This document shows, piece by piece, positions 48,101 to 57,100 of a stretch of DNA of 64,000 nucleotides. This stretch comes from Escherichia coli (lineage in GTDB: Bacteria; Pseudomonadota; Gammaproteobacteria; Enterobacterales; Enterobacteriaceae). The stretch is from NCBI RefSeq assembly GCF_017348835.2, contig NZ_CP071375.1, one strand, 5' to 3'. The position numbers are program-made. How positions within the stretch are numbered: position 1 is the stretch's first letter; each line of letters opens with the position of its first letter.

Positions 48101-51100
48101 CCGCCCCCCCTCTCACGCAGAGAAAAAATTCCCGTTTCAGGGCAGTTAACATGTTAACTGGCTGTCCGGGCATTTTTGCGGTTTTTATCTTTATTATTCA
48201 GTTTGTTGTGCGGAAAAAATGTTAACTGGCTTTTTCAGCAAATGTTAACCAGGCAGCAGTTAACATTTGCGGCATGAGACGCCGGGAAAAATGGGCTGAA
48301 CCATACCCGGCTGAGTGCGTTCTGGACCCGGGAGGAGGCTGTGCTGACAACGCAAAAACGAAAATTTGCGCTGGCGCTCATGTCCGGGAAAAACAAAACA
48401 GCGTCAGCCATTGCCGCTGGTTATTCGGCGAAGACCGCCTGGGTTAAAGGCTCGCAGCTGGCAAAAGATCCGGAGGTGCTTGCGTTTATAGCCCGTAAAC
48501 AATGCGAGACGGTGGAGGTGGATGAGGTTCCTGTTTACCGGCAGAAAAAATCAGAGCAGGAGGATAAACCCCGTCGCCGTGAGGCGGCTGCAATACCACA
48601 GCCGGATGAAAACAATCCGGAGATGCCACCGTCCGCGGTGATGTCTCCTGGTATTGAATATATGGAGGATGGTCTTCCCGATCCGGTGAAAGCGATGGGG
48701 CGTCTTCTGGTGGAGAACATTAATACCGACCCCAGGCTGGCGCTGGATGCGGCTTATAAGCTGGCGCAGTTCACGCACCATAAAAAAGGGGATGCCGGTA
48801 AAAAATCGGCAAAAGGTGACGCGGCGAAAAAAGCGGCTAACCGTTTTGCGGTGCCACCACCACCCCGCCTGGTGGTGAATAATGATAATGAGGGCAACGG
48901 ATGATACCTGTGTGGAGCACGGCCTGCCCGGACTGGGCAGAGCGCCTGAAAAAGGGGCTGTCGATTATTCCGGCTCCGATTTATCCGGACCAGGCTGCAC
49001 ATGCACTGGCGATTTTTAAACAACTGCGAATTGTGGATGCACCGGGTAGCCCGACATTCGGGGAGTCCTGTGCACCGTGGGTGTTTGACCTGGTGGCGGC
49101 CCTGTTTGGCTCCTACGATGCGCAGACCGGTGTTCGCCATATCAAGGAAGTGTTTATCCTTATCCCCAAGAAAAACAGTAAGTCCACGCTGGCTGCGGGG
49201 ATCATGATGACGGCGCTGTTACTGAACTGGCGGCAGGCGGCGGGCTACACCATTCTGGCCCCGACCGTGGAGGTGGCGGCTAACGCCTTCAACCCTGCCA
49301 GGGATATGGTACGACGGGACGATGATCTGGATGACCTCTGTCAGGTGCAGACACATATCCGGACCATCACCCATCGGGTGACGGACACCACCCTGAAGGT
49401 GGTGGCAGCCGATCCGAATACGGTGTCCGGTATCAAGTCCGTGGGGACACTGATTGATGAACTGTGGCTGTTTGGCAAGCAGTACAAGGCGGAAGACATG
49501 CTACGTGAAGCCATCGGCGGGCTTGCCTCCCGTCCGGAAGGGTTTGTGGTGTATACGACCACCCAGTCGAATGAACCGCCCGCCGGGGTGTTCAGACAGA
49601 AACTGCAGTATGCCCGGGATGTCCGTGACGGCAAAATTCATGATCCGCACTTTCTGCCGGTGATTTTTGAGCATCCTCCTGAAATGGTGGAAAGCGGGGC
49701 TCACCTGCTGATGGAAAACCTCGCCATGGTTAACCCGAATCTCGGTTATTCGGTGGATGAGGCCTTTCTGTACCGGGAGTACCGTAAAGCCCGGGAGGCT
49801 GGTGAGGAAGCATTTCGTGGCTTCATGTCAAAACACGCCAATGTGGAAATCGGTCTTGCCCTGCGTTCTGACCGCTGGGCGGGCGCGGATTTCTGGGAGC
49901 AGCAGGGCAGGCGCGTCAGCCTGGACGATATCCTGCAGCGCGCTGATGTGGTGACGGTGGGGATTGACGGCGGGGGCCTGGATGATCTGCTGGGAATGTA
50001 CGTGACTGGCCGTGACAGGGAAACCCGCGAATGGCTGGGCTGGGGCCATGCCTGGGTGCATGAAACCGCGGTGGTCAGACGGAAGAGTGAGGCATCCCGG
50101 TTTCAGGATTTTGTGGCCTGTGGAGACATGACGATTGTCCGTCGGGTCGGGGATGACACGGCGGAAGTGGCGGAGTATGTGCGTCGTATTCATGAGGCTG
50201 AGTTACTGGATCATATCGGTATTGACCCGTCAGGTGTGGGGCAGATTCTGGATTCACTGGCGGAAGCCGGGATCCCCGATGAGAGTGTGGTGGGGATAAG
50301 CCAGGGCTGGAAGCTGGGCGGGGCCATCAAAACCACCGAGCGCAAACTGGCTGAAGGGGTGCTGATTCACGGTGATCAGCCCCTGATGGCCTGGTGTGTC
50401 GGTAATGCCCGGGTGGAGCCTAAAGGTAACGCCATTCTTATCACCAAACAGGCCAGCGGACGGGGAAAAATTGACCCGCTGATGGCGCTCTTCAATGCGG
50501 TGTCCCTGATGTCCCTGAATCCGGAACCGAAAAAGAAAGCGTATGAGGTTTTTTTCATATAACCCTGCTCACCCTGTAACCATCATGAACCGCTGCGGCG
50601 GTTTTTTTATTTTCAGGAGGCTGATGTGACTCTTAAACGGGCCTGTTCCCTGCTGACGGTGAAATCCTTCAGTGAGGATGAACGGGTGATCACCGGGATT
50701 GCGTCAACGCCTTCTCCGGATCGGGATGGTGACATCCTGGAGCCGGAGGGGGCGGAGTTTGGCAGTACGATCCCGTTTCTCTGGCAGCATGACCATTCCC
50801 GCCCTGTAGGCCAGTGTACGGTGCGTCGGGTCAGGGAAGGGCTGGAAATCACGGCAATGCTGGTGAAGCCGGAGCCGGGGATGCCCTCCCAGATGGCAGC
50901 CCGGCTGGATGAGGCCTGGGCTGCCATTAAGACCGGGCTGGTCAGGGGGCTTTCTGTGGGCTTCCGGCCCCATGAATACACTTATCTGGACGGAGGCGGA
51001 CTGCATTTTCTGCGCTGGGAGCTGATGGAGGTGTCTGCCGTCACCGTGCCCGCGAATGCGGAATGCACCATCCGGACCATTAAATATTTCGACCGCCCGT

Positions 51101-54100: not shown

Positions 54101-57100
54101 GCGGTGAAGGCGATGTTCAGGGGGATACTGCGAAAATGACAGAGCGTGAACTGTCCATTATCCGTGCGCTGGGTGAAGAATTCTCCACGGTGCTGGCGGA
54201 TTTACAGCGCACATTTGAGGGGAAGATGGCCTCGCAGGCACAAGCGTTTGAAGAGAAACTGACTTCCCTGTCGGCGGTATTACAGAAGCATGTGACGGTG
54301 GATGAGGTGCGTCCGGTTCTGCAGGCGATGGTGGATGACGCTGTGGGGGCCATTCCGGTACCGCGTGATGGTCGTGATTATGATCCGGATGTACTGCAGC
54401 AGGCGGTGAATGATGCGGTTGCGAATATTCCGGTACCGGCGGACGGCAAAAGTATTACCCCCGATGATGTGCGTCCGATGCTTGAACAGATGGTGAAGGA
54501 GGCGGTAAGCCATATTCCTGTTCCGCGTGATGGTCGTGATTACGATCCGGAAGTACTGAAGCAGGCGGTGAATGATGCGGTTGCGAATATTCCGGTACCG
54601 GCGGACGGCAAAAGTATTACCCCCGATGATGTGCGTCCGATGCTTGAGCAGATGGTGAAAGAGGCGGTAAGCCATATTCCTGTTCCGCGTGATGGTCGTG
54701 ATTACGATCCGGAAGTACTGCAGAAGGCGGTGAATGATGCGGTCGCGAATATTCCGGTACCGGCGGACGGCAAAAGTATTACCCCCGATGATGTGCGTCC
54801 GATGCTTGAGCAGATGGTGAAAGAGGCGGTAAGCCATATTCCTGTTCCGCGTGATGGTCGTGATTACGATCCGGAAGTACTGCAGAAGGCGGTGAATGAT
54901 GCGGTCGCGAATATTCCGGTACCGGCGGACGGCAAAAGTATTACCCCCGATGATGTGCGTCCGATGCTTGAACAGATGGTGAAAGAGGCGGTAAGCCATA
55001 TTCCTGTTCCGCGTGATGGTCGTGACTATGATCCCGATGTTCTGCAGAAGGCTGTTCTGGATGCGGTGAGAGCCCTGCCGGCTCCGCAGGACGGGCGTGA
55101 TGCCACGGCACTGGAAATAATCCCCGCCATTGACGATCAAAAATCCTTTCCCCGGGGCACGTATGCCACACACCAGGGCGGACTCTGGCGGGCGTATGAA
55201 AAAACGCACGGGATGCGGGGATGGGAATGCCTGGTTGACGGGGTGGCCGATATTGACGTCAGCATGACCGGCGAACGGTCGTTCACTGTGGTGGTCCGGC
55301 AGAGCAGTGGCCAGCGTACGGAAAAAACATTTTCCCTGCCGGTGATGCTCTACCGCGGTGTGTTCAGAGCCGGTGAAACCTACCACCCCGGTGATACGGT
55401 GACGTGGGGGGGCTCGCTGTGGCACTGCAACAGTATGACCGGTGATAAACCCGGAGAAGCTCATTCATCAGGCTGGACCCTGGCTGCCAAACGGGGACGG
55501 GATGCAGGAGGCGGAAAATGACGGCATTACTGACACTGGAAGAGATCAAGGCACATCTGCGTGTCGACCATGACGCGGATGATGACATGCTGATGGACAA
55601 GGTTCGTCAGGCTACCGCCGTGCTGCTGGCCTACATTCAGGGCAGCCGGGATAAGGTGATTCGTGAGGACGGTGAACTGATCCCGGGCGAGGCATTAACC
55701 CGGATGAAGGGGGCTGCCATGCGACTGACCGGGATGCTGTACCGGAATCCGGATCTTGCGGAGCGGGAAGAACTGATTCAGGGGGAGCTGCCGTTTTCTG
55801 TTTCCGTGCTGATTTACGATTTGCGTTGTCCGACGGTGTTATGAGGAGGGGGAATGGCAATATCTGCAGGTCGTCTGACACAGATGATAAGTGTTCTGAA
55901 CCCGGTGTTAACCCGTAATGCTGCCGGAGAAATGACGGAAGAATGGGTGTCATGCGGGAAAATTCATGCGGATATCCGTGGCAGGAGCAGCCGGGAGCGG
56001 ATGCAGTCCGGTGCGGAAATGGCGCAGGCGGAAATCCGCATCTGGGTGCGCGGTCAGTCCGGCCGGGAAATCACGGCAGCGTCACGACTTCATGTGCTGA
56101 GTGGTCCATGGCGTGACCGGATCCTGAACGTTGTCGGGCTGCCCGTGCCGGATGCGACCGGCGGGCGTCTGGAAATTCTCTGTCGGCTGGGAGGGGAAAA
56201 ATGATCGAAACCCTGCTGGATTTTTCGGGGCTGGAGGACATCAGCCGCGATTTGCAGCTTCTGAGTGGTGCGGAAAATAACCGGGTGCTGCGTGAGGCAA
56301 CCCGTGCGGGTGCGAATGTGCTGAAAGAAGAAGTGGTGTCACGGGCACCGGTACGCAGGGGAAAACTGCGCCGCAATGTGGTGGTCCTTTCCCGGTGCTC
56401 CCGCGATGGCGGGATGGAATCCGGTGTCCATATCCGTGGTGTTAATCCGGACACCGGTAACAGCGATAACACCATGAAGGCGGATAACCCGCGCAATGCT
56501 TTCTACTGGCGGTTTGTGGAAATGGGGACCGTGAATATGCCACCGCACCCGTTTGTGCGCCCGGCGTTTGATGTGCGCAGTGAACAGGCAGCTCAGGTGG
56601 CGATTGCGCGGATGAACCGGGCCATTGATGAGGTACTGAGACGATGACGGAGGCGGATTTGTATCCTTATCTGGCGCATCTTGCCGGCGGGCAGGTGTAC
56701 CCGTATGTGGTCCCCCTGCTGGATGGCAGGCCGTCGGTGGCGCTTCCGTGGGTGGTTTTCAGCCTGATTTCATCGGTGTCGGCGGACGTGATGGGCGGGC
56801 AGGCGGAGTCCTCAGTGTCGGTGCAGATAGACGTTTATGCCGGGACTGTGACGCAGGCGCGTCAGATACGTCAGGACGCCCGTGAAGCCATAATGCTGCT
56901 GGCCCCGGGATCCGTCAGTGAAATGCAGGACTATATTCCGGAAAACCGCTGTTACCGTGCAACCCTGGAGTTTCAGGTCACGGTGTGACTTTTTCTTTTT
57001 TTCTACAAAACCCATACCCCGCCGCGTGCGGGTTTTTTATTATCAGGAGGCAGAATGTCTGCTTTGTATGAACGCTCACAGCTGACGCAGGTGATGATTT

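Follow-up and report, generated by a model that had tools for sequence, protein, structure and literature searches.

A protease-capsid fusion gene ahead of the portal in an Escherichia coli Stx-type prophage, and a conserved candidate start within it

The head module and its fused gene

Between 48 and 57 kb, the window (the 64,000-nucleotide stretch of Escherichia coli contig NZ_CP071375.1 analysed here) carries the late (head) module of a lambdoid prophage of the long-tailed, Sawaravirus-like Stx-phage type, and within it an open reading frame (ORF) of 645 codons that joins a prohead protease to the major capsid protein (MCP). The late region as a whole runs from 48 to 64 kb, and by ORF calls and family assignments all of the head-module ORFs described here lie on the + strand. 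HK97-type head genes stand here in a permuted order: the small (terS) and large (terL) terminase subunit genes are followed by the protease-delta-MCP gene, a small ORF, the portal gene, a gene for a fibre-like protein, and the connector genes. An earlier note on this DNA had placed terL at 48901-50562, the 645-codon ORF at 50626-52563, and the portal gene at 52775-54139, and all three sets of coordinates proved exact; its account of a single ORF lying directly next to terL also stands, with the addition that a 73-aa ORF separates capsid from portal. We regard the identity of these parts and their order as close to certain.

The fused gene (50626..52563, + strand; assigned from Pfam, NCBIfam, PHROG 617, an AlphaFold2 model, and Foldseek) starts at a GTG at 50626, five bases after an AGGAGG Shine-Dalgarno sequence at 50615-50620. 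Its product matches PHROG 617 (major head protein, fused type) at 862.5 bits over nearly its whole length, with residues 1-639 aligned to profile positions 7-626 of 626. At the N-terminus, a serine protease domain of the S78 (HK97 gp4) type occupies residues 18-153 (50677..51084), as judged by BLASTP, conservation, and the AlphaFold2 model, with His55 and Ser110 at its candidate active site. Peptidase_S78 (PF04586) matches residues 48-151 at 32.7 bits against a Pfam cut-off of 21, and the stricter protease equivalog TIGR01543 scores 44.1 bits, under its cut-off of 59. In a BLASTP alignment this part is 29% identical to HK97 gp4, and His55 pairs with His65 and Ser110 with Ser114, which we take from the HK97 literature to be the catalytic residues of gp4. 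Both positions are at least 90% conserved in 126 homologues and invariant in 109 distant ones (the homologues span 36-77% identity), so the S78 catalytic residues appear intact and the domain is predicted to be a protease.

A flexible linker follows at residues 154-192 (51085..51201), recognised by a predicted local distance difference test (pLDDT) score below 50 at residues 154-189 and by gappy alignment columns; its length and sequence vary across homologues, and it contains an AAGGA at 51187-51191. The delta (scaffold-like) domain, at 51202..51411, is a helical hairpin of residues 195-223 and 229-262 whose two helices are predicted with high confidence by AlphaFold2 and which the TIGR01554 alignment covers from residue 204 onwards. 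The HK97-fold major capsid domain takes up residues 293-645 (51502..52560), where Phage_capsid (PF05065) matches residues 386-635 at 55.2 bits (Pfam cut-off 24.2), and TIGR01554 (major_cap_HK97), a model that includes the delta domain, matches residues 204-584 at 80.9 bits (cut-off 27.5).

The AlphaFold2 model, made from the 126-sequence alignment and with a mean pLDDT of 86, shows the same division: a compact domain at residues 18-153 (pLDDT about 95), disorder at 154-189, two long helices at 195-223 and 229-262, a loose segment after the second helix, and an alpha/beta domain at 293-645. The Foldseek matches of the whole model include the Bxb1 capsid protein (3e-15), HK97 heads and proheads (about 1e-10), and the capsids of D3 and T5; because only capsid matches were listed, assignment of the protease fold rests on the sequence evidence above. 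The capsid part has no BLASTP-detectable similarity to HK97 gp5, and a sequence search of the PDB gave no or only marginal matches, so that profile and fold comparisons were needed to identify it. Pfam, TIGR01554, AlphaFold2, and Foldseek agree with the earlier note that an HK97-type protease, a scaffold-like segment, and a capsid domain are joined here: the protein consists of an S78 protease, a disordered linker, a helical delta hairpin, and an HK97-fold MCP.

The 454-aa ORF downstream (52775..54139) is unambiguously an HK97-type portal. Phage_portal (PF04860) is covered from position 2 to 321 of its 321 positions with E=6.6e-81, TIGR01537 (portal_HK97) matches at 355.9 bits (cut-off 112), and the protein is 28% identical to the HK97 gp3 portal. 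If the 645-aa protein were really the portal, or the 454-aa protein really the capsid, the order of genes would be the canonical one. Such a swap, which the earlier note had itself raised, is hardly credible: the domain searches put portal models on the 454-aa protein, and capsid and protease models together with a predicted HK97 fold on the 645-aa protein, and we found no point in its favour.

A candidate start at Met193

Within the fused gene, an in-frame ATG at 51202..51204 (+ strand) encodes Met193, exactly the first residue of the delta domain and, in the AlphaFold2 model, the point at which the disordered linker gives way to the first delta helix. Comparison with relatives suggests that this codon is the start of a 453-aa delta-MCP product. 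When 120 fused homologues are aligned as proteins, 109 show a methionine 3-8 residues ahead of a conserved EQI motif, and methionine makes up only 0.46% of the 40 residues preceding this position. Among the 11 homologues that have no methionine there, seven have valine and one leucine; a valine case that could be read at the DNA level (protein P0121, locus L084) has a GTG after GGAG.

Nucleotide sequences were compared in a set of distant loci: 80 from viruses, with 38-46% identity to a remote member of the family, and two short metagenomic contigs. All of the 81 analysable distant loci have an in-frame start codon at this position (ATG in 73, GTG in 8), usually behind CAGGAGGGC. The mean energy of the predicted duplex with the anti-Shine-Dalgarno sequence is -8.4 kcal/mol at these internal starts vs -2.9 for 2621 other in-frame ATG and GTG codons of the same genes; energies of -5 or lower are reached by 89% of the internal starts and 20% of the controls (Mann-Whitney p = 3e-41). 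De-duplication at 80% identity leaves 57 clusters, for which the means become -7.8 vs -3.0 (p = 1.5e-26); 57/57 clusters have an ATG or GTG behind a Shine-Dalgarno motif, and in 26/57 the internal site is the strongest Shine-Dalgarno match of its own gene. In the distant relatives the start of the protease has a mean energy of -5.8, weaker than that of the internal start. The GGAGG purine motif is retained while the residues that it encodes differ (QEG, PEEG, LEG, KEG, REDG, YEED, and KLEA), and the conservation therefore points to selection on the nucleotides or the RNA rather than on the protein.

Relatives in which protease and capsid are separate break at the same place. Two stand-alone capsid homologues (P0251 and P0269) begin at exactly the residue equivalent to Met193, and stand-alone capsid relatives in three loci (L166-L168) and in Burkholderia phage vB_SBP9 have a separate S78 protease gene just upstream. 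In two further loci (L092, 2205-4278, and L093, 1911-3984) an in-frame TAA stands directly before the internal ATG; a third (L121, 6744-8838) resembles them, and in these loci protease and capsid share a frame with one or two in-frame stops at the internal start. To judge from their sequences, L092, L093, and L121 are natural split versions of the fused gene.

These observations favour dual initiation, by which the ORF would yield a nested pair of products, the protease-MCP chain and the MCP alone, and we put the probability of this reading at roughly 65%. The earlier note's description of a fused gene would then stand for the ORF but only in part for its products, since the conserved ribosome-binding site (RBS) and start at Met193 suggest that the capsid protein is also translated separately. 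Several points weigh against dual initiation. In the window itself the internal Shine-Dalgarno sequence is modest (the AAGGA at 51187-51191, with a spacing of 10 nt and an energy of -6.2 kcal/mol), the site ranks 8th among 48 in-frame ATG and GTG codons by this energy, and the N-terminal GTG is the stronger of the two starts (-10.3 vs -6.2 kcal/mol). This is the reverse of the pattern in the relatives, and the case for an internal start therefore rests on comparison and not on the window sequence alone. The loci compared are also related to one another, so that the counts and p values above do not represent independent events, which de-duplication corrects in part. The conserved methionine could have a structural role at the beginning of the delta domain, and frequent switching of lineages between fused and split forms could keep relics of ribosome-binding sites in place. 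Finally, a rough volume estimate indicates that the capsid interior could hold a protease on every subunit, and an assembly pathway in which all subunits are fusions is probably sterically possible.

The strongest competing explanation is an obligate polyprotein: every subunit would be made as the 645-aa chain and would mature only by autoproteolysis, the internal methionine and its Shine-Dalgarno sequence being a relic or having some other role. In its favour, thousands of sequences keep the ORF uninterrupted, the N-terminal start of the E. coli copy has its strongest Shine-Dalgarno match, and the analogous tripartite gene of Gifsy-2 has reportedly been described as a single composite gene. 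However, a relic should decay over a protein divergence of 36-77% identity, and instead a start codon is found in 81/81 loci, its Shine-Dalgarno sequence is far stronger than those of control codons and is retained at the nucleotide level in different amino acid contexts, and where methionine is lost, the DNA of 8 viral loci and of P0121 has GTG, itself a usable start. The split relatives (L092 and L093, L166-L168, and vB_SBP9) moreover show the internal start in functional use. We consider the polyprotein unlikely, though it deserves to be taken seriously.

Under dual initiation, the 645-codon ORF would be read from two starts. Initiation at GTG 50626 would give the 645-aa chain, in which the S78 protease (His55/Ser110) is tied by a flexible tether of about 40 residues to the N-terminus of the delta domain, and initiation at ATG 51202 would give the 453-aa delta-MCP alone. 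We propose that the two products, because they share the delta and HK97-fold parts, would co-assemble on the portal into a prohead, with the delta domains and the tethered proteases facing the interior. The protease would then cut away the delta domains and itself to leave a mature capsid protein beginning near residue 265-295, and DNA packaging would follow cleavage. Free HK97 gp4 uses a C-terminal targeting tail, which the covalent tether would here replace. Use of both starts, their ratio, co-assembly, and the cleavage steps are all predictions from sequence.

Nested pairs of a similar kind are known from lambda C/Nu3 and herpesvirus UL26/UL26.5, in which a long product carries an N-terminal protease and a shorter, abundant product with the same C-terminus arises from an internal start or transcript, the tether ensuring that the protease is co-incorporated (PMC11565193). 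The window ORF resembles them in having its S78 domain (residues 18-153) at the N-terminus, upstream of Met193. What the two products share there is a separate scaffolding protein, whereas here, by analogy and as read from the sequence, it would be the capsid protein with its built-in delta domain. Fused genes of this clade occur in Enterobacterales, Pseudomonas, Burkholderia, Moraxella, and many metagenomic viruses, and it seems rather likely that the fusion is, across the clade, a programmed nested pair in which free delta-MCP is made in bulk and a minority of subunits carry a covalently attached interior protease. If so, it would be a bacteriophage counterpart of UL26/UL26.5 with the tether on the capsid protein itself and no separate scaffold, and the conserved internal start would offer a simple, testable model for protease dosage in the proheads of HK97-like phages that have no free protease. 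This nested translation is the only potentially new element of the locus; the searchable literature, in which most subscription journals are missing, held no account of an internal start in protease-capsid fusions.

Gene order and distribution of the fusion

The position of the fused gene ahead of the portal is unusual only from a distance. The earlier note called the order atypical, and by comparison of gene maps it does differ from that of HK97 (terS, terL, portal, protease, MCP), as it does from those of lambda and Gifsy-2; within the phage's own clade it is invariant. We located terL, the fusion, the portal, and downstream genes by phmmer in 82 loci and read the order wherever the flanks sufficed. 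(A scan of viral contigs with the single protein had matched only E. coli copies 96-100% identical to it, and was redone with an alignment headed by a distant family member.) The order terL, fusion, portal is found in 82/82 distant loci, with no exception among those having enough flanking sequence. In the 3-kb contigs that encode P0121 (L084) and P0128 (L085), terL lies upstream in both, and the portal is downstream in L085. Unfused relatives (L166, L167, L168, and vB_SBP9) have terL, protease, MCP, one or more small ORFs, and then the portal. The same order in fused and unfused relatives means that the permutation is independent of the fusion and, as far as the sequences tell, an old inherited trait of the clade. 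A recent rearrangement of one prophage, or a consequence of the fusion, would account for an order unlike that of HK97 and Gifsy-2, in both of which the portal comes first; we give these explanations almost no credence, as 82/82 distant loci share the order, and so do relatives from Pseudomonas, Burkholderia, and metagenomes, some of them unfused. The loci compared provided no evidence of a functional reason for the permuted order.

The nearest known systems are other Stx phages. Phages of Sawaravirus, a genus recognised by the International Committee on Taxonomy of Viruses, that convert their hosts to Stx production carry a protein 96-99% identical to the 645-aa protein of the window. These phages and prophages of E. 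coli (for example Stx2a_WGPS2, Stx2a_1447, Stx2 phage 1717, and YYZ-2008) have about 97% DNA identity over 48901-55521 and an identical gene order, and differ in essentially nothing except the number of 162-nt repeats in the post-portal gene. More distantly, ORF003 of Pseudomonas phage PAJU2 is 48% identical over its full length, has S78 and Phage_capsid domains, and is annotated in a GenBank note as "structural protein; prohead protease fused capsid protein". Its genes likewise run terminase, ORF003, small ORFs, portal ORF006, ORF007, and the internal ATG recurs in PAJU2 with AGGAGG before it (locus L127); the phage differs in host and genus and in having a shorter post-portal gene.

HK97 shares with the window the protease family, the aligned catalytic histidine and serine, the delta domain, the capsid fold, and the downstream connector and tail-completion genes. 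Its gp4 and gp5 are, however, separate genes that follow the portal, and gp4 is targeted non-covalently, whereas in the window the two parts are in frame and precede the portal. In Gifsy-2, a tripartite capsid gene likewise combines a protease, a scaffold-like middle part, and a capsid in one ORF (Effantin et al., 2010, as cited in PMC12315714). That protease is ClpP-like (Pfam CLP_protease, 4e-38) rather than S78, the capsid domain is Phage_capsid_4, and the order is canonical, with the portal before the capsid gene; the 645-aa protein of the window has no CLP_protease match in Pfam. Protease-capsid fusions are a recognised annotation class elsewhere too: the "major capsid and protease fusion protein" of actinobacteriophage clusters AN, AU, AW, and EE and the fusions of Rhodobacter RcC phages embody the same architectural idea in other sequence families, and NCBIfam NF045541 ("prohead protease/major capsid protein fusion protein"), of the same architecture, scores 52.7 bits on the window protein against a cut-off of 525, as befits another family.

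The fused gene is also common. A 6.6-kb segment of the window is 96.5-97.9% identical to dozens of records of Stx1a-, Stx2a-, and Stx2c-converting phages, and of 5426 complete E. coli genomes, 1251 carry the 1938-nt gene at 90% identity or more, in up to seven copies each. Among 1.84 billion representative proteins searched, 1175 matched below 1e-30; the best 150 of these, at 38-54% identity, are nearly all full-length fusions of 630-680 aa. That some relatives have separate protease and capsid genes might suggest that the fusion is an artefact, either a sequencing or frameshift error or a decaying pseudogene joining two separate genes. Against this stand the intact 1938-nt ORF in so many complete genomes and in inducible or sequenced Stx phages, the predominance of full-length fusions among those best 150 representatives, and the conserved catalytic residues, and an artefact is exceedingly improbable. 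We treat this explanation, like misassignment and recent rearrangement, as excluded.

Neither the fused gene nor its position before the portal is new, both being common and already annotated in E. coli Stx-type prophages; as they are frequent in prophages of enterohaemorrhagic E. coli and recur across a wide phage clade, they carry little weight as a discovery. Of some practical value is the inconsistency with which the ORF is named across databases, where the deposited names include "major head protein", "major head protein/prohead protease", "phage prohead protease", "capsid and scaffold", and "phage major capsid protein". Separately, three database proteins of about 1080-1094 aa (P0002, P0123, and P0132) join terL to the protease-capsid ORF, the first with a TerL_ATPase domain; these entries are probably artefacts of gene calling or frameshifts.

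Neighbouring genes and the portal annotation

The gene after the portal (54136..55521, + strand, its start overlapping the portal stop in an ATGA) encodes a 461-aa repeat protein that is fibre-like and has a C-terminal domain resembling carbohydrate-binding module (CBM) family 5/12. A 162-nt (54-aa) unit is repeated in tandem 4.3 times within it at 97% identity (54352-55052), and Stx phages differ by one or two units in the number of copies. In 51 of the 82 distant loci the portal is followed by a gene whose product is homologous to the last 60-100 residues of this protein, which suggests that its association with the portal is conserved in this clade. Collagen triple-helix (G-X-Y) repeats are found in 13 of 25 relatives and a CBM5/12-like C-terminal domain in 16 of 25, and the beta domain predicted at the C-terminus of the window protein bears a weak resemblance to phage fibres and chitin-binding domains. 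A fibre-like protein of the head or neck is the probable assignment, a site in the capsid interior also having been considered.

In two loci (L086 and L098) the homologue of this protein is fused in frame to the portal. The portal gene of the window ends in CGA AAA TGA (54131-54139), with the ATG of the next gene in the -1 frame (A AAA TGA), and close relatives have CTG AAA AAA TGA. A programmed -1 frameshift joining portal to the 461-aa ORF was considered and rejected as a general mechanism, as the downstream ORF is separate in 49 distant loci. In these, the downstream gene usually overlaps the portal stop by 4-20 nt (23 in the +1 frame and 19 in +2), and no slippery site at the overlap is shared across the 49. 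With overlaps in either frame and no common slippery site, translational coupling is the simpler explanation, and the more likely link between the two genes.

PHROG 2271 ("portal protein", 859 positions) spans both the portal and the 461-aa protein. In RefSeq, the Prokaryotic Genome Annotation Pipeline merges portal and repeat ORF into a single hypothetical pseudogene marked "frameshifted; internal stop; incomplete", although the portal ORF is intact. The label covers 14150-16813 in E. coli PE164 (L001) and 6650-9313 in O55:H7 strain CB9615 (L172), corresponding to 52775-55438 of the window (window coordinates equal those of L001 plus 38625). The label is probably an annotation artefact that stems from the rare relatives (L086 and L098) in which the two proteins are fused. 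Tools that assess prophage completeness might, because of it, count these Stx-type prophages as defective.

The rest of the late region follows a familiar plan. Upstream of the terminase genes, an HNH endonuclease gene (47685..48050, + strand) was found as an ORF and carries the same annotation in the identical region of strain PE164; an HNH gene in this place is typical of HK97-like cos packaging modules. It is followed by the genes for the terminase small subunit (187 aa, 48341..48904, Pfam Terminase_2 at 2.3e-8) and large subunit (553 aa, 48901..50562, Pfam TerL_ATPase and TerL_nuclease). A sequence scan found a GC hairpin followed by a T run, predicted to be terminator-like, between terL and the protease-capsid ORF (50587..50614, + strand), and right after the capsid stop codon the sequence has a perfect 8-bp inverted repeat, GGGAGGCG/CGCCTCCC, with no T run (52580..52597, + strand). 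The head operon of HK97 has annotated putative terminators at comparable places.

The 73-aa ORF between capsid and portal (52608..52829) matches PHROG 829 at 2e-39, and its last 55 nt overlap the start of the portal gene. Every relative inspected (PAJU2 with ORF004/005, vB_SBP9, L084, L166, and L168) has one or two small ORFs in this place. Beyond the 461-aa ORF, the genes for head-tail connector, head closure, gp10-like, and gp17 tail-completion proteins (55518..56988; Pfam Phage_connect_1, Phage_HCP, HK97-gp10_like, and Tail_completion_gp17) are collinear with gp6 to gp9 on the HK97 gene map. The major tail, G/T, and tape-measure genes come after gp17, and the head genes aside, the order of the late region is collinear with that of HK97.

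Small RNA and tRNA genes borne by the prophage span 30505-42028 of the window: DicF small RNA (30505-30556, - strand), sok (37170-37344), a tRNA with anticodon CAT (40752-40827) that RefSeq calls tRNA-Ile, tRNA-Arg with anticodon TCT (40928-41004), STnc100 (41774-41966), and the anti-GcvB small RNA AgvB (41967-42028, - strand). Another small feature of the window, naRNA4, lies at 8320-8396.

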